Shown in pieces: positions 25,039-38,604 of a stretch of 64,000 nucleotides of DNA. A model generated the notes under the pieces. The model did not search any database. It worked only from the letters and a program-made list of their open reading frames with translations, and was not told the origin of the DNA. How positions within the stretch are numbered: position 1 is the first letter of the stretch; each line of letters begins with the position of its first letter. Position numbers and translations under genes: made by a program. The DNA is taken from the NCBI GenBank assembly GCA_000091205.1, contig AP006500.2, one strand, 5' to 3'. The stretch is from Cyanidioschyzon merolae (taxonomy: Eukaryota).

Positions 25039-26019
25039 GAGCTACTATCCTGCATCGGAACGAAGGACGCTCACCCGCGGTAGTGTCGCGCTTCTGATCC
25101 GCGCAGGCGCGTAAGCCGGCAGGAGTCGTTGCTGCATCGAGTTTTTTTCGATGACAGAGCGTTTCCATTGACCATGAATCCCCAATAGCGGGATGGGTAC
25201 TACGATTCATGTAATTCTCCATCATGACGCAACCTATCTCCAAGTTCCATTACCCATATTTCCTCTCAGGTATACTGGTCTTTTCCTTTGTTCTATCGTA
25301 TGCCAAGTGCCTGCAGTGAGCACCCACCGCAGCGCCTAAACCGCTTGTGCGGATGCTACACGGAGACAGAGTAGCTTTGTCATACCACTGAGGGCGTCGG
25401 CTCGAGGAATGCTACACCTGACACGGGATCAGGGCTACTTATCATTCTGGGAGTCTGGAAGCTGCGCAGGCAGGCGTACTGCCTGCGGCAGCGCAGAGCG
25501 ATATTCTTCGAGGACACCACGACCAGCGCGACGCCCAGACGCAGCATACCGCTCTGAGTCCCAGAATAAACTGCATTGCGGACGAGTTGCTCAGATCTCT
25601 CTGCATGACCAGGCTCCGAGAGGTCTATGAAGCACGAGCCTGGGAGAATCGTCCGACTCGCGGGACATTCCGCCCAGAAGGTAAACTTTCGTCAATATGG
25701 AAATCTTTGCTCCCCATGAATTTTTATCATTGACAGGGAAGGCAATTGTTATCTCGCTGCCAGTCAGTAGTGAGTCTCTGCTCTTCGTTCTATAGAGTAC
25801 AGTCGATAGGCGCACCCAGGAGATCTGCCAGGCACGAGGTACGACGTGGATATCGCCATTGAAGAGAAACGCGATCCTGATCATTAGCATGTTGTATACC
25901 GTACAAGGTGTATTTGCGTTGAAGTCGTAGCAACGTTTAGTCTTCAGTTCAGTTGTGTTCCAACCCCAAAGCAAGTATATACGAGCGATTTTTCGTGGTT
26001 TATAGCAGAAGCGTTCAAA

Positions 26020-28263
26020 GTGTGTTCTTTTTCGAAAATAAAAAAGGAAAGTTCTGGACGAAGAAGTGGAGGATCCTGGAGGCACGGTGTCGCCAGGTGG
26101 CGAAAAGAACGAAAAATAGTGCCGAGCAAAGATGAACAGGAGAAGAAGAAGAAGAAGCGAGAGCCAGACCTCAACGGCTGCAAGAAAGGCGACAGCATGA
26201 CGAGATGATAGTGAACGCCTGCCTTCTTGGATGTATCAAGGATCCGTACGAGCAGAAGATGCGAGAGACCACCAGAAGCCGTGTCGATTCCTACTCCAGG
26301 AGCGTGCGTAACACTTCTTTTTGGACTGAAGCATACGGTGAAGGAGATATACGATGACCTTACCGACACGAAAACAGTCGAGGTTCCGGAAGCGTTTTTT
26401 TTAACAAGACCCTCAGCCGCCACTTGATGCTTGGCACAGGGGGACGTCGAGGGAAAATGAGCGCATGTGCGTCCTCCATGAAAAATACCCCTACTAGGGT
26501 CTCAAAGGTACTCGTTACAGGGGTGACTCGCGTATTTTCGAATACAGGGCAAAAAAGTATCTCACGAACCTGAACAACCATATGATCATGAAGCTCGAAC
26601 GTTTCATGACACGCTCCATCGTTGCGCGCTACCCGGGCCTCTCTCGCAAAGGGATACGGGCCATCATCAATGGCGTCAGGAACGATAGTAAGAATGAACA
26701 GGAGATCGAATTCCTCGACGAGAAGACATCACACAGGAGAACGAATGAAGCTTCTGCAATCCGTACGGCAATTCAAGAGCACCGTCCGGTCTCGGAGCTG
26801 GTCAATCCAGCAGGAAATGTATCAGGTATGGAAAAAGAAAAGCAAAGATGTTATCCCCTAATCCTGCGCTATTTCGTGTGTTTGGACCGCGAACTCGATC
26901 CCAAGGCCAATATGGAGCTGGGTGTGGAACAAAATGTAGAGTCAGAGAAACGGAAGGGTATCCTAACGGGTAAGCGCTTTAGCGTTGTTGCGTTATGCAT
27001 CACCAAGTTCCATTTTGTAACAATCGACTCCAGAGTCCTCAACGGCATCATGAAGGAGGTCTGTCTGGAGTTCGATGTAAGGAAGATAGAGTTCACCAGT
27101 GAAAACCGGGAGACGTACTGGAAGAATATCTTCAATTTCAAACGTCTCAATACGTGCAAGCAAAAGGTATTCACTGGCATCATCGAAACCGATGGAGTAG
27201 CCATGTGTGTACACTCTCGGCGCTTGAAGGCAGATCGTCCAGTTCCGTCCTCGACTGCGCCCGTGGCGAAGCATGAAGAAAACAAGGAGGCTGGCCTTAC
27301 AACGCAGGAGGTACAGGAGAACGATTTTGTTGTTGGCACGGACCCTGGGAACACGAATATCGTAACCATCGCAGTACCCAAGCGTGCGGAAGATGATATC
27401 GACGGCAACTTACGTCAGAAGGACATCCGTCTTTGAAAGCTCACGACAGCTACATCTTACCGAGAATCAGGAAAACTGAATGCAAGGAAAAGAAATGAGA
27501 CGTGGAATGCAGGAGTGAAAGAGCACAAGGCAGCGATCAGCCAGGTGACGAGCCGAGGAGCGGACTTTGAAGCTTTTCGAGAGTTCATGAAAGTCCGCGC
27601 TGCTCTTGACGAGCCGCTGTCGAAAGAATCTACAAAGCCCCGGTGGGCTCGTCTGCTTAGAATCTTGTACTTTGGGAAGCAGCACGCATTTGCCAACTTC
27701 TTCAATGAGTTGAGCGCTCTCAAAGAGGACAAAATTCAGAGACTCGTGGTGGTATACGGAGCAGGGCATTGGATGACACGGAAAGGTAGCACACCAGCTC
27801 CATCGACACGAGCGTATAAGGAGTGCACACTGTGCTTCGTCATGATGTCGATAGATGGGTTCCGAACGTCGTATACATCCACCATGAGCTAGGGTGTGTA
27901 CTTGAGAGTGTCGAGATGGAAAAGTGCCAGCAGAGCACTGAGGATGTAGCAAACTACGGAGCGCTGACAGAGCACCTAACGGCATGGAGGGTGCGAGTTC
28001 GAGGTCTACTTCCGTTGGTGAGTACAACCAATGCCAAGAAACATATGAAATTCGTGAACCGAGACTTCAATGCCGCCAACAGTATAAGCAGATAGGCGGT
28101 GCTGGAGAAGAGGCCCCCAGAGTTGACCAGAGCCAACTTTCTGGGGCAACCTCTGCAGATGGCGCTGTACGAGAAGAAGCTGAAGCCAGTAGTAAATGGC
28201 CGGTCCAAAAACCCTGGGAGAATTCTGCACGCTGGCGTATATACATCAACGCTATCGGCTTGA
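26020..28263 (+). pseudogene. TnpB-like / Fanzor-type RuvC nuclease, copy 1, near full length but disabled
   Basis: Ordered motifs are [16 protein letters not shown] (Asp 27341-27343), QRLVVVYGAGHW..KG.TPAP and SIDGFRTSYT (Gly 27857-27859 where copies 2 and 3 have Glu). They are followed by KFVNRDFNAANSI (Asp 28063-28065). Lesions are TAG 26495-26497, a frame change at the T-run near 26395-26405, TGA 27437-27439, a +2 nt insertion at 27878-27879 and TAG 28093-28095. The 5' limit is uncertain. Confidence 0.75.
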
Positions 28264-28804
28264 TGTGTGTGCGTTCGTTTGCTCGTTTTGCTGGCGGGAT
28301 TGATGGCGTCGATCCCGAGTCCAGATGGAGAGCTGGCGGGAATGCTGCTGCGCTCTTTTCGCTGCAGTGCGTTGCGAGGCATTCTGTAACGAGAGGCAGG
28401 TTTCCAGGGGCAGCACAGAGCAGCAACACAGGATACGTTCAAAGGCGTGCTTGGCGTGCTTCCGAGCGGCACCTTCGGGGGTTTATTTCGGAGCTTCGCC
28501 TTCGAGCGCTCTCCATAAGCGAAATACCAACGGTTTCAGTGATGGGCGGGCAACGATGCGTACAGGTGAGAAACGCTCCAGATGCCACGACCACCGCGCG
28601 ATCGTTGCGCCAGGAAACGACATAATTTTGAGAAGAAGCATATACAGGCCCAATCCTAATGATAAGCGATTTCATGTAGTCGACGCATCGAATATATGTA
28701 GCCGCTAGGCACCGACGCATCCTCGTTGACATGCGGAGCGCAGCGTTCTCCTGTCCAATGCCCAGTCATGCCCCGTACAGGTATTCATTTCTTGACCGCA
28801 TCAT

Positions 28805-29563
28805 TCATTCCTCAGCGGACGCCGATGACGCCGGTCGAGAGCGAGGCCGAAAGCGCAGCGGTGCAGCGCTACGCTTTCGGCGACTCGAGCCCGAGGTGGC
28901 TTTCACGATGTTCGCGTCGGCGGCCGTGCAGATAAGACGCAAACGATCAGCGTAAACGTAGGCCTCGGTAGTCGCGTCTCCAGCGGAGCGTGCATGACTG
29001 GTCACAGCGGGAACAGCGCGTCCGTCCAGGCAGTCCGGCCGAGGCGGTAAATGGGAAGCAAGTCGCGGGCCCTCGAGTTTCAGGCTCCCGCTCGCGGGAA
29101 CTGCCGGTTCAACGCGTATACTGGCATCCGTGGCGCCACCTAGGTCACTGGTCCGTGGCAGTCGCTCCACAGCAGCGTAGGTTTCCGGTTTGCGCTCGAG
29201 TCGAAGCAGTGCATGTCGGACGAGAAAAGTCCACACGTTATCTCGCAAGTTGTAGTGTGCGAGGCGTCCCCTGAGCACGGAACGCTGGCGGACTTTCCGT
29301 CGTAGATAGCGAGCAACTGCTTGGTCAAACTGGGTCCACACCAAAGCAGCCTCTGACTCCTGCAAGTGTCCCGCGCTCAATAACTCGTCGAGGGTGTCCT
29401 CAAGAGTCAGGCCAATTGTTGAGGCCCGGTAGTGAGCGTAAAACACCCCCGGCTGGTTAGCGGCGGTGTTTGCATCTTGTTTCCCTCCCCGAATGCTTTC
29501 CGTTGTAGCTTGGCCCGCATCTGGCTCTGCTTTTGCAGTACGCTGCGGTGTTGCGTCGCTCAT
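28805..29563 (-). CDS. GTF2A2: transcription factor TFIIA small (gamma) subunit with an internal insertion
   Basis: YRASTIGLTLEDTLDELLSAGHL...ALVWTQFDQAVARYL...RGRLAHYNLRDNVWTFLV matches the TFIIA-gamma N-terminal helical and beta-barrel signature. ATG at 29561-29563. TGA stop at 28805-28807. Confidence 0.7.
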   Translation of the reverse strand: MSDATPQRTAKAEPDAGQATTESIRGGKQDANTAANQPGVFYAHYRASTIGLTLEDTLDELLSAGHLQESEAALVWTQFDQAVARYLRRKVRQRSVLRGRLAHYNLRDNVWTFLVRHALLRLERKPETYAAVERLPRTSDLGGATDASIRVEPAVPASGSLKLEGPRLASHLPPRPDCLDGRAVPAVTSHARSAGDATTEAYVYADRLRLICTAADANIVKATSGSSRRKRSAAPLRFRPRSRPASSASAEE

Positions 29564-31687: not shown

Positions 31688-33655
<1,968 letters not shown>

Positions 33656-34370
33656 ACACGTAAAGTGAATACCCTCAAGATGCCTGCTATCGTCCGCTGC
33701 GGCATTCTCCAAAGCGCGTATCCGCTTGTCGTGGACGCGAATACTGCGTGTCGGCGCTGCAGTTCCGGGACGGCCGCAGGGCCCGCAAGCGCGACACGCC
33801 TCGCTGGCGCGTTCCCGCTGGTAGCTGTCAACGCGAGCTTGTCGTGGGCTTCTCTGCCCAGAGCCGCTGTTATCGGAACCCGGGTTACGGTACTCAAGTG
33901 CGGACAGTGCAGGCAGGGGTCCGCCTAGGTCTGCAACGAGTGCCGCACTGGTCGGCGCCCGCCAGTTCAGATTCGAAGCACATGCCGAAGCGCGTCAGTG
34001 TCACCAGGTCGCTATGAAACGCCAGTGACACTCTCTCCAGATCCAGATACCCAAGTGAGTGACTTATGCTCCTTCAGCGAGTGTCAAGTTCCCGGTGCAT
34101 AAGCTTGCCGAACTGGCGCAGCATGCATCCTGCCAGATGGAAGCAGTTCGATGGTTCACGCTCGCTAGCCTGACGGATCATCTGTAGTCTTTTGTACATA
34201 CCAGGTTTGCAGCCCAGCGAGCCTGGATTCCGATGAAGCACTCGACCGCGATAGCGTACCAGGTCGTCTATTGCAGAGCACGACTTGCATCGATTCTGGA
34301 ATACCGCCACCAAACGCCGTTCGAAAGTCGAACGACGCCAACGGTGTACAGTAGTGGCGAGTGACCCGCC

Positions 34371-35400
34371 CTAGACAAGACGTCTCCAAGTGACGTGCAG
34401 ACGCCATCCGATCTTTCTCGACCGGCCACCTACGACTACTGCTCCCAACTTCTTCTCATATAGTTCGACTTTTGGAGGTTGTTCCACAAAGTTCTCCCGT
34501 GTCAACTCTGGAGGTCTCGTCTCTATCACCGCACATCTCCTTATATTGGTAGCGGCATTAAGGTCTCGGTTCACAAACTCCATACGTTTCTTGCAATCAT
34601 TGGTTGTACGTACTCATGCGAGTAGCCCTCGAAGTCTCGCTCTCCTTTCCATTTGCTCCTCCGTCAGCGGTCCATACTTTTTTATATCTTCAGGGCTCCG
34701 CTGACACTTTTCCATCTCCACTGTCTGAAGTGTACACCCCTGTTCATGGTGTGTATACGAGGTTCGGAACTCATCTACAGGTATCGTAACGAAACGCCGT
34801 GCGCCCTCCTTGTACGTTCTTGTCGTTGGAGCTGGCGTAGTCCCTTTTTGGGTCTTCCATCGCCTTGCTCCGTACGCTACGACGAGCCTCTGATTTCCAT
34901 CCTCCTTCAGGTCACTCAACTGATTGAAAAAATTCGCGAACGCCCGCTGCTCCCCACAATACAAATTCATTCGCAAACGAGCCCGCCGGGGCTTGGTATA
35001 CTCCTCCCACAGCGCATCCCAATGGGCAACGCGAACTTTCATGAATTTCCGAAAAGCTGCAAAGTCCGCGCCTCGTCTAGTCACCTCGCTCAAAGCTTCC
35101 AGGTGCTCTTTCATTCCTGAGTTCCAAGTCTCGATTTTCTTCCTCGCATTCATTATACCGGATTCTCGATAGTATCTTGCTCTCGAGAGCCTCAAAAGAC
35201 GCATGTCTTTCTGACGTAAGTTACCATCAGTCCCATCTTCCGCACACTTTGGTACAGAGATGGTTATGATGCTCGTATTCCCAGGGTCCGCGCCAACGAC
35301 AAAGTCGTTATCCTGCACCTCCTGCATCGCAGGATCCGCATCATTCTCATCTACATCCTTCGCCAGGGGCGAAGCCGAGGACGGACCAGGAAGCGGGCCC
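34371..35400 (-). pseudogene. TnpB-like / Fanzor-type RuvC nuclease, copy 2; the N-terminal half is missing and there is one in-frame TGA
   Basis: DFVVGADPGNTSIITI (Asp 35286-35288), QRLVVAYGARRW, PVDEFRTSYTHHEQGC (Glu 34770-34772) and EFVNRDLNAATNIRR (Asp 34563-34565). ORFs 34614-35327 and 34371-34583 are in the same frame, separated only by TGA 34614-34616. Homology to copy 1 runs upstream to about 35400 (GPLPGPSSASPLAK vs [12 protein letters not shown]) and then stops. Confidence 0.75.
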
Positions 35401-35401
35401 G

Positions 35402-36323
35402 ACGGCGCTGGAGGTGCAGAAGAACGCGTTTGTCGTTGGCGTGGATCCCGGGAACACCCACATCGTTACCATCGCAGCACCCAAGCGTGAGGAAGATGGC
35501 TCTGTCGGCAACTTACGTCAGAAAGACATAAGTCTGTTGAAGCTCTCATGAGCGAGATATTACCAAGAATCCGGTATAATGAATGCGACGGAGAAAAGTG
35601 AGACATCGAACTCAAGAGTGAAGGGAATTTGGAAGCGATCAGCCGGGTGACGAGCCGCGGAGCCGACATTGAAGCGTTTCGAGAGGTTATGAGCATTCAC
35701 GCAGCTGATGACGAGAGCTTTTGGAAAGAATGCACAAAGTTCAGGTGGGCTCGTCTGCGTATGAACCTGTACTGTAGGAAGCAGCGAGCATACGCCAGCT
35801 TTTTCAATCAATTGAGCGCCCTCAAGGAGGACATGAGCCAAAGGCTCGGAGTAGCATACGGGGCAGGGCGCTGGATGACCCAAAAAGGGTGTACACCAGC
35901 TCCAACGACAAGAACGTACAAGGAGTGCGCACATCGTTATGTCGAAATACCTTTAGATGAGTTTCGAACATCTCATACACACCACGAGCTGTGTTGTACA
36001 CTTCAGAGGGTCGCGATGGAGAAAAGCCAGCGGCTCGCTGACGGAAATGCAAATAGCAAGGAGGGCGAAACTTCGAGGACTACTCGCTTTGGTTCGTAAA
36101 ACTAATGATAGGAAGAAACGAATAGAGTTCCTGGACTGAGACTTTAACGCCGCCATCAGTATAAGGAAATGTGCAGTACTGGAAAGAAGACCCCCGGAGT
36201 TGGCGAGAGCCAACTTTGCGGGGCAACCTCTTAAAATGGAGTGATACGAGAAGAAGTTGAAACCAGTAGTAGGTGGCCAGTTGCTGAACGCCAGCACAGT
36301 CGTCTGCACATCATTGGGTAGAC
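35402..36323 (+). pseudogene. TnpB-like / Fanzor-type RuvC nuclease, copy 3; the N-terminal half is missing and it is heavily disabled
   Basis: AFVVGVDPGNTHIVTI (Asp 35444-35446), QRLGVAYGAGRW, PLDEFRTSHTHHELCC (Glu 35959-35961) and EFLD*DFNAAISIRK. In the last motif the Arg codon of NRD is TGA (36137-36139). Further stops lie at 35549-35551 and 36242-36244. There are frame changes near 35620 and near 36030. Confidence 0.7.
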
Positions 36324-36661
36324 AATCGGTCTACGGCGGACGGTGTGAGAAACGCCACCATTGTACACTGGCTTTCCAGCGTTTCTCTTTTGCAAGGCGT
36401 TTGGTGGTGTTTCCAGAGACGAATTGTTTACCAAAAACGTCTTCTATCGATCTTCGAAACCAACGTGCTGCTTCCTCTGTGCGGCACGGGGCGTACGCTA
36501 TGCGCTTTTCTGCTGATTGACAGCGGAAGCGACGAGTCCGGTTACTGCCTTGAAGACTTTGACGCTTTGGAGAGACCATCATATCGATGGTTTCAGTTTT
36601 CTGACCTCCTCCTAACCACCACGCTCGGATCTCTGTTGCAACGGCACGCGCAGCAGCTCTC

Positions 36662-37610
36662 ATGGCAGCCAAAGCTGAACCCGGGCATCGAGAGAGTGGA
36701 AAGCTGCATCAAAGGTGGCGGAAAGCCAATGAAGCTGGTTATCTGAGCAAGCTTGCATCACCTGCAGAGCTGCGAGCACTCGTCCAAGCGAAACTGACAC
36801 CCGAGGAGCAAGTGCGTTTTGGGATGCAGTGTGCAGGGCTGGCAGCCAAGGCACTTGAGGTACTCGACAAGTCGCTTACATCTTTAGAGCAAGACATAGA
36901 GAACGAGTCTTGTGACTGGGAAATAGAATCGGACGATGCCATGGACCGTGTTGCGAGACGATTCCTTGCCGATCTCGAACAGCTAAAGCAGACTGGCAGC
37001 ACGCGTCGACTCACCCAACTCAGTATTTGGCGTCGCATCAGTCGCTAGGTCGTACTGGCGGAAAGGCGAGCATGAACTGCAGGCTGAAGGCAGTCCTCTT
37101 GTGAGGCAAGTCGCGAAGATCGCGGACCAGGCATCCAAGACTCCGGGATACCGCCAGGTCGTTGCCTGGGAGCATCTGGAAGAGCTCGCAGATGCGGCAA
37201 CTGCAGATGGTGTATTCGGTTCGCAGTCGCGGTCGATGTCACGTATCTTACGTCGCCCAGAAAGTCGGTTTCGACTCTTGCTCACGAAACTAGAGCTTGG
37301 TGAGGAGCTCTGCACACGCGACGAGCGGCGTTTGATGCTAGCATTGGATACCTCTGATGCGAGACTTGAACCCGAACGCATGCGCTCGAGGAAGAGGGCA
37401 CCTGGTGGAGCGCAGGATGGCGCCTCTGCAAAGCGCGACCACGGGAGGTCTGCATCCGTTTCGTCGTCGTCGTCGTCGTCGTCGTTAGAGCCAGAGCACG
37501 AGGATCACGTGCACCCAGCGGCCAAGAACGCGTCTTCCGCGAGAAAGAAAAGACGACATCATCGGCGACGATCATCCAACAAAAACGAAACCCTGGAGAA
37601 TCCTCAGTAA
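36662..37610 (+). CDS. hypothetical coiled-coil / Ser- and Arg-rich protein; reading frame split into two ORFs (36662-37048 and 37101-37610)
   Basis: ATG at 36662. The second frame is already open from 36987, so the two frames overlap at 36987-37048 and a single 1-nt indel would join them. No family recognised. Confidence 0.35.
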
Positions 37611-38604
37611 GCTAGCATTTGAGCGAGATTGCTGCCGAATCATCGCCGTGCCCTGGCCCAGTGGATATCGCATGATGCATCGTTTACAGCGTTTCAGTCA
37701 TGATCCTGGGTGGTGATTATCCCCGCCGGAATACCTCAGGACTAGATCGCGGATCGTTGGAAGCTACGCTCGCGTCCATCGCGTGTACCATGCGCTGCAA
37801 AAGTGGTGCTTGTCTGCAGCTCCTCAAAGAGCACATGATCGCTTGCTGTGCTGCGAGCACCACGCCGCCGGCCTCTGTCGGCAAACGCGCTCAAAGGCGT
37901 ACTCGCGACAAGCATGAATTCAGCAGGAATATTGGCGCTGGTTGAGGCACTGCGACTGACTATCGAGAGACCAATCTCAGCAACCGCAGCATGCGTCGAT
38001 CACTGGGGCGCAGCTTAAACTCCAGCAGCGATGCGGCAGTGTCAGAGCCAGACCTGCAGACTAGTGGACAGAGCGCAGCATGCCTCGTTCTGGATTTCGC
38101 AGAAGTACCCGCCAGAGACGCTTTTCAGGGTAGCCAGTGGCGGATCGCGTCTATTTCGCTACCGGGAATTCGGACGGATTCCGCGTCCAGTCGACCGGGG
38201 ACGGTTCACGCTCTCCACTCGGACGTCAACGCGTTTCACTTTGGTGATGAAGGTGCTGCATTCATCGACCGACCAGTCTGCATGACGATTCGAAGAACAT
38301 CGGGCGGAATCTTTGATGCATACCTCTGGAGCATGATTCGCAGAGGTGTACTTTTTTGCGGGTCGTCGAGGTGGAGCGTGTGGCGAGAGCCACATATTTG
38401 AGCGACCTCGCACCGGGCGTGATCCAAGTCACCATTCGGCTGATGCTCAAGCGTGCCTCGCGTACCCGACATGTCGTTGCTCACCTTCGTGATGCTGGTG
38501 TGCTTCTGTGGGTAGCGCACTTGCGCCCGTTTGCGAAGCGTAGCGGACCTTGAGGACAAATGGCACGCTCCAGCAGCCATGCGCTTGCATAGGTCATGCA
38601 TTCA

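Follow-up and report, generated by a model that had tools for sequence, protein, structure and literature searches.

The omega-RNA of SpuFz1, the Fanzor1 nuclease of Spizellomyces punctatus, has a 75-nt scaffold located between stop codon and transposon right end, followed by a variable guide of 14-15 nt, and that of GtFz1 from Guillardia theta overlaps the last 17 codons of its gene (PMC10432273). Here we describe a candidate module of the same kind in CMe-1A, a transposon of the red alga Cyanidioschyzon merolae, as found in a 64,000-nt stretch of contig AP006500.2 (the window). A Fanzor1 family, "CMe", was catalogued for C. merolae in 2013, and CMe-1A was described then as present in ~150 old copies ~80% identical to their consensus, ~3 kb long, without terminal inverted repeats (TIRs), with target site duplications (TSDs) that could not be determined, with Fanzor1 as the sole encoded protein and with an unknown mechanism of transposition (Bao and Jurka 2013; PMC3627910). 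Element and protein were therefore already known. In the searchable literature, Fanzor and Cyanidioschyzon appear together only in that paper and in one unrelated preprint.

Three nuclease remnants, c1, c2 and c3, are present in the window, and all three are pseudogene copies of CMe-1A. A sequence-only reading of the window had noticed that c2 and c3 share ordered blocks, A to D, downstream of their nuclease open reading frames (ORFs), and had proposed these tails as a candidate omega-RNA or right-end region. Comparison with related loci indicates that the tails are composed of the last codons of the nuclease and a structured, non-coding right end of CMe-1A, ~65-70 nt long. Since the module matches Fanzor1 omega-RNAs in size, strand and position and, as they do, has a sharp boundary and continues on the 3' side into variable sequence, it is taken as an omega-RNA scaffold, and by this analogy it is probably both the right end of CMe-1A and the template of an RNA that would be transcribed, bound by Fanzor1 and used as a guide. 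The core of the earlier proposal is supported by comparative evidence, and its anatomy was wrong in several places: block A is coding, and the whole of block D and one half of block C lie outside the element.

As in the described Fanzor1 omega-RNAs, the CMe-1A module is on the sense strand at and after the 3' end of the ORF, its conserved scaffold (~75-100 nt) extends to the right end with a copy-specific segment next to it and, as in GtFz1, it overlaps the last codons. In contrast, it has no sequence similarity to the SpuFz1 or GtFz1 RNAs, and the omega-RNA of Spu-1 is tied to a 3' inverted repeat, whereas CMe-1A has no inverted repeats. The omega-RNA (reRNA) of bacterial TnpB systems (IS200/IS605, e.g. 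ISDra2) similarly has a scaffold in overlap with the nuclease gene's 3' end that stops at the right end, with flanking DNA as the guide (established knowledge and PMC10432273), but CMe-1A differs in its eukaryotic host, in lacking TnpA and a pair of left- and right-end hairpins, and in the sequence and fold of the scaffold. The element is the same as the CMe-1A of PMC3627910, where alternative 5' modules were seen too; that study, made before RNA guidance was discovered, gives no account of a 3' RNA module, a right-end boundary, solo modules or dimers arranged head to head. The module is an expected feature of a Fanzor1 transposon and not a new type of system.

Extent and coding status of the right-end module

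The region around the stop codon was aligned in 80 related loci, and a covariance model, R1, was built from 13 ungapped copies. R1 gave 82 matches in the window and in related loci of hot-spring metagenomes, representing 70 distinct sequences with 66 distinct flanks. The module measures ~104 nt, with the last ~33 nt of the ORF and ~65-70 nt after the stop codon. From ~33 nt ahead of the stop codon as far as ...GGCGUU, ~60 nt after it, the sequence is highly conserved; the next ~6 nt, which pair back, are weakly conserved, and beyond them conservation is zero. Immediately past the terminal hairpin, information content falls to ~0 bits, and different loci have unrelated flanks.

In the window, the module is intact in c2 (34306-34409, minus strand), being made up of 33 nt of the ORF end, the stop and a non-coding part of 65 nt. 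Its R1 score of 120.1 bits (E 6e-30) is the best of all, jointly with that of its orthologue L032, and its stop codon, TAG at 34371-34373 (minus strand), occupies the consensus stop column of the family. The module of c3 (36295-36408, plus strand) scores 25.4 bits (E 1.6e-4). Both copies had been offered as instances of the feature; c2 can stand as one, and c3 has to be flagged as degenerate. The coding end of the c3 module has a 1-nt insertion, the consensus stop is changed to TAC (36332-36334), the loop of the P2 hairpin is enlarged by an insertion (36335-36356) and P3 carries two mismatches; the minimum free energy (MFE) fold of c3 lacks P3 (z -1.98), and its terminal hairpin, at -8.0 kcal/mol and z -0.1, is no better than shuffled sequences.

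Similarity is lost abruptly at 34306 in c2 and ~36408 in c3. The closest paralogues of c2, 85-88% identical to it, lose their alignment at 34303-34309, which fixes the right end independently of R1. A search for c3-type paralogues that would define the c3-type right end gave only orthologues of the same locus. In two related loci, a (GCGT/GCAT)n microsatellite abuts the right end (L011:1684-1740 and L071:1198-1240).

Blocks A to D were all found in their places when the sequence was read directly. Block A (c2 34381-34403) was said to lie past the point at which the protein alignment collapses, and this was wrong, as it represents the last ~8 codons of the ORF. The proteins of intact relatives finish with ...GRRLHVSWRRFV* (...ELYEKKLEAVVGGRSKKTGRRLHVSWRRFV*), and block A (CGTCTGCACGTCACTTGGAGACG) accordingly encodes the last residues of the protein. 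The C-terminus RLHVTWRRLV corresponds to c2 34374-34403, and tblastn of the consensus C-terminus against c2 ends at 34374. The collinearity claimed for the two tails holds through blocks B and C (score 39 versus 17.4 +/- 2.4 for shuffles, reached by none of 1000), and it does not extend to block D and beyond; by blastn, the inverted c2/c3 homology reaches 34295/36417. Block B and the first half of block C are in the module, and the second half of block C (TTCCAGA..CGA) is just beyond the element end. Block D (c3 36491-36505, plus strand) is outside the feature and amounts to a shared 9-mer (GTACGCTAT), such as chance alone would give ~0.14 times in 200 x 200 nt. The best local match of c2 and c3 past the element end is marginal (9 of 1000 shuffles) and not collinear with block D. 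Weaker similarity over another 50-90 nt, also reported earlier, was not reproducible, and no reliable c2/c3 homology was found more than ~20 nt past the family-level end. In place of the proposed extent of 36301-36545, the feature has the limits given above, perhaps reaching 36416 in c3.

One frame stays open through part of each tail (ORFs 34074-34313 and 36257-36520), and the sequence-only reading had accordingly added the caveat that the tails might encode a C-terminal extension of the nuclease. TAG or TAA is found at one column in 45 of the 70 distinct copies. The tail is short and G+C-rich and is open in 49, 42 and 48 of 61 copies in the three frames, respectively; with all three frames open in most tails, the open ORFs carry no information. 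Those database proteins in which the stop is read through continue in differing frames (QGGFLATTVHG... and RHYCTPLASFDFRTAFG...), and a Pfam search with the tail peptide gave no match. The 3-nt periodic substitution pattern of coding sequence is absent from the tail, where mean pairwise identity by phase is flat (0.69/0.71/0.67). It is likewise flat over the final 36 nt of the ORF (0.74/0.77/0.77), whereas the upstream ORF has ~0.85/0.89/0.72, with the usual third-position dip, codon periodicity fading from about -150. Given the conserved stop and the lack of codon periodicity, a C-terminal extension was rejected, its probability being close to nil.

Folding of the module and its possible roles

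The structure model has four elements: P1, P2, a linker (ACUACUGUA) and P3/P4. P1 is a helix in the coding end (CGUCU/AGACG), for which two alternative registers are about equally supported. Hairpin P2 (GGCGGGUCACUCGCC; c2 34356-34370, minus strand) directly follows the stop codon and is paired in 92% of cells; one of its pairs occurs as G-C (29 sequences) and as C-G (23 sequences). Of 42 distinct P2 variants, 38 fold as a single hairpin with no alignment used. The single-stranded linker (c2 34347-34355, minus strand), which is part of block B, has a column conservation of 0.78-0.98. It is followed by the long terminal hairpin P4/P3 (CACCG..CGUCGUUCGA CUU UCGAACGGCG..UGGUG; c2 34308-34346, minus strand), the 3' foot of which is the right end of the element. 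All 10 pairs of P3 show double changes in some copies, and 56 of 59 distinct variants of P3/P4 form at least 10 bp (median z -2.2), again independently of an alignment. The hairpin occurs in two main subtypes (UUCGACUUUCGAA and UUUUUCUUUUGAAAG) with the helix kept in both, and the c2 variant folds with -22.7 kcal/mol (z -4.4).

For the module as a whole, 80.8% of cells are paired in the 70 distinct sequences, compared to 34-52% if the partners are slid by 1-3 columns. The covariation score of 0.19 was reached by none of 500 shuffles (0.134 +/- 0.007). Compensatory changes across the aligned tail copies, which the sequence-only reading had suggested looking for, are present in the sense-strand hairpins of the covariance model. 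The MFE of the c2 module is -45.8 kcal/mol (z -3.2) in the sense and -29.8 kcal/mol (z -1.45) in the antisense direction, and G-U pairs are abundant.

Several points weigh against an omega-RNA. The shuffle controls for covariation ignore phylogeny, and the alignment behind part of the pair support was fitted to our own model. RNAalifold, run on raw (MAFFT) or model-fitted alignments of all copies, returned P2 only, owing to indels between subfamilies and to decayed copies; many of the copies are pseudogenes in decay, and P4 reaches a pairing of only ~69%. A covariance-model search of 33600-37000 on both strands gave no Rfam match at E <= 1. No consensus structure was found upstream of -36, so that the 5' end of the putative RNA is placed only by the start of the homology among solo modules, described below. 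Moreover, identical covariation would result from a hairpin of single-stranded DNA at the end of a transposon.

A rival proposal is that the module is a cis element at the DNA level, the 3' end of the transposon with a terminal hairpin that a transposase would recognise or replication would use, and that it has no role as RNA. The module stops exactly at the element boundary, a long terminal hairpin is typical of some transposon ends, and in an element without TIRs or TSDs and with an unknown transposition mechanism (PMC3627910) such a structure would not be out of place. However, the left and right ends share no similarity on either strand, the sense strand folds much better and contains many G-U pairs, and the only protein encoded belongs to an RNA-guided nuclease family, of which characterised members use this region as omega-RNA (PMC10432273). 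We regard a purely DNA-level role as unlikely, and it should be added that the DNA and omega-RNA roles are not mutually exclusive. In local alignment, the left and right ends scored below the shuffle mean on both strands, i.e. ends of the IS200/IS605 or TIR type were not found. Helitron-like ends (5' TC and 3' CTRR) were also considered, and the ends read here do not show them.

The module also occurs without an ORF. Four such solo modules, scoring 56-88 bits, were found at L066:420-523, L064:369-472, L012:1020-1118 and L029:1001-1107. Their homology starts at GGAAGCGUCUGCAC, at -33/-36 from the stop, which is exactly the 5' edge of the module. They resemble the "ghost" loci described for Fanzor systems by Saito et al. 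2023 (PMC10432273). They share a context of ~500 nt upstream and lie ~40 nt before TAGGCTCTTGAAAATAATCT, the start of a full-length copy; given this wider shared context, the four may trace to a single origin.

Solo modules bear on the question of whether the tail is an element of the Fanzor mRNA, such as a structure in the 3' untranslated region for stability, processing or polyadenylation, and not a guide RNA. A structured segment on the sense strand directly after the stop codon would suit such a function. Against it, modules are retained where the ORF is gone, conservation reaches the synonymous sites of the coding end, and the structure stops precisely at the transposon end and gives way to copy-specific sequence, as in omega-RNAs. 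An mRNA element is therefore improbable, and the omega-RNA scaffold is retained as the best explanation.

The nuclease copies and the head-to-head pair

Close homologues of the translated copies number 275, and almost all of these come from JGI metagenomes of hot springs. Pfam gave only a weak match to PF07282 for the nuclease family, and searches of PDB and Pfam with c2 alone or with a shallow profile, A1, found nothing useful. Since single sequences and shallow profiles were nearly blank, a broader profile was needed to reach the Fanzor1 structures. This profile, A4, was composed of the members of the window family and of relatives at the 30-43% level from a library of 1.8 billion proteins, and it matched the solved structures of Parasitella Fz1 (9cf0, E 9e-16), SpuFz1 (8gkh, 6e-11) and GtFz1 (9cer, 1e-5), a further likeness of CMe-1A to Fanzor1. 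D421, E592 and D658, the catalytic D-E-D of a split RuvC domain, are invariant across A4.

None of the three window copies has an intact full-length ORF, with the N-terminal WED/REC part and RuvC. The longer pseudogene, c1 (25812-28233, plus strand, by blastn), keeps the N-terminal half, contains frameshifts and is truncated at the 3' end, its homology (27238-28233) being lost a few codons ahead of the stop. A tail module was not found in c1, where the best R1 score over 27900-28900 was 2.4 bits (E 0.5). The ORF remnant of c2 (34374-35391, minus strand) was identified by translation, tblastn, homologues and the profile match; it has a 5' truncation ahead of RuvC-I and a single internal stop, and in translation all D/E/D motifs are retained (GADPGN, VDEFRT and NRDLNAA). 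The c3 remnant (35358-36334, plus strand), recognised by translation and by blastn to c1 and c2, is 5'-truncated at the same point as c2 and has many stops and frameshifts, with the RuvC-III motif NRD destroyed (it reads FLD*DF). The neighbouring ORF at 31703-33655 is a p68 RNA helicase and an exact match to BAM82643.1 of C. merolae 10D.

Variation was also seen at the 5' side of the family. The linker ahead of RuvC-I contains a unit of 75 nt (25 aa), KDEExKEAxPAxQEVxDNDxVV, in tandem repeats whose number varies among copies, with examples at 35288-35391 of the window and in homologues such as L024:25-248, P0002 and P0005. The 5' leaders fall into at least four unrelated, class-conserved types upstream of a common core (ATCGCGCUCGGUGAGCGCACC...), aligned at the equivalents of L066:1243. 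One class is a long form, probably TE-N2_CMe of Bao and Jurka; the leader of c1 (25740-25812) belongs to the class 'atcgtagag...gttctat'.

The copies c2 and c3 are arranged head to head, with a 47-nt spacer between the arms of the inverted repeat, a shared 5' truncation point and, within the spacer, a short palindrome, CTTCGCCAGGGGCGAAG (35366-35384), as the pivot of the pair. From this arrangement, one might suppose that the two tails are similar only because neutral DNA was locally duplicated in inverted orientation, and that their similarity has no function. An inverted repeat around a palindrome with a common truncation point agrees with that, as does the likeness of ~16-20 nt beyond the family-level end (TTCCAGA..CGA). 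However, ~66 copies of the module lie in flanks that are unrelated, the identity of c2 is 85-88% with many other copies versus 72% with c3, which is itself ~74% identical to everything, and the hairpin is of the S-type in c2 versus the L-type in c3. We hold a neutral duplication to be very unlikely, and for block A through the first half of block C these data contradict it. A simple recent inverted duplication as the origin of c2 and c3 was likewise rejected, since many other copies are closer to c2 than c3 is and the hairpin subtypes differ.

The likeness past the element end, at roughly 12 of 16 positions, is explained only in part. On the c3 side, TTTCCAG (36410-36416, plus strand) is probably the terminal motif of L-type tails (GGCGUUUG..UUUCCAGGGG), split by an insertion of GTGGTG, and the TTCCAGA..CGA stretch of c3 probably belongs to this motif, UUUCCAGGGG, which five other copies have. 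TTTCCAG directly follows GGCGTTTG in L002, L035, L060:692, L064 and L065. On the c2 side, the stretch is outside the element, as judged by the closest paralogues. The subfamily of tails in question (L002, L035/L036, L060:692-800, L064 and L065) ends with GGCGUUUG(N0-6)UUUCCAGGGG, and a possible 5' partner of the ending is CCACUGG (CCCCUAG in L065). In other flanks, TTCCAG was seen at variable distance, in 11 of 66 near flanks versus 8 of 60 far regions, which are 3x longer; in the window it is found at 36410-36416 and 34296-34301. A target-site preference for TTCCAG was considered and is not established, the ~4-fold enrichment per nt coming mostly from the one subfamily with the motif inside its tail.

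The head-to-head pair (window 34306-36408), with a reversed c3-type arm and a c2-type arm at a palindrome joint, recurs at no fewer than three other loci and is listed at L030:1-1717, L063:1-1728, L033:1-1696 and L032:1-1505. Beyond the right end on the c2 side, the flanks of these loci are related neither to the window nor to one another, and the c3-type inner arms are 93-95% alike, versus only 84-88% for the c2-type arms. At the c3 locus itself, L082-L086 (samples 3300050357-62) are orthologues of window 35316-37696 with 96-97% identity in pseudogene and flank, which shows that wild relatives have the dimer too and that it did not arise as an artefact of assembly. The recurrence could be due to a mobile composite, to recurrent fold-back or to homogenisation. 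The pair may conceivably represent a recurrent composite unit, and not a one-off rearrangement, in which both outer ends are outward-reading omega-RNA modules, a proposal that we consider doubtful. If true, such a unit would carry two flank-derived guides, and composite units together with solo modules would be guide-only elements relying on the few intact Fanzor1 genes of C. merolae.

Putative guides and meaning for CMe-1A

In the proposed mechanism, the module would template the scaffold of a Fanzor1 guide RNA by transcription in the sense direction. The RNA would fold with the P1 helix in the coding end, P2 after the stop, the linker and the long terminal P3/P4, and it would run ~15-20 nt into the flanking DNA, which would be the copy-specific guide. 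By analogy with SpuFz1 (PMC10432273), the putative guide of c2 is GGUAUUCCAGAAUCGAUGCA at 34286-34305 (minus strand, i.e. from 34305 to 34286), in the copy-specific flank just 3' of the scaffold where conservation is gone and where the second half of block C lies; that of c3 would start from 36409. Given an intact scaffold and a dead ORF, c2 could act only with nuclease supplied in trans. Inference of a target-adjacent motif failed, with left-end flanks that could not be aligned, since the 5' regions fall into at least four modular classes.

The model alga C. merolae is tractable by genetics and has almost no introns. CMe-1A is its main family of DNA transposons and has been known since 2013 without a mechanism or termini. 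With a candidate omega-RNA of ~104 nt and a right end placed to the base, there is now a concrete RNA to seek in existing RNA-seq data, and reconstitution of a native Fanzor1 ribonucleoprotein from an intact copy becomes possible. The rule of a scaffold followed by ~20 nt of flank would allow guides to be predicted for all copies. The module adds a candidate red-algal member to the few Fanzor omega-RNAs described, with the concept itself unchanged.

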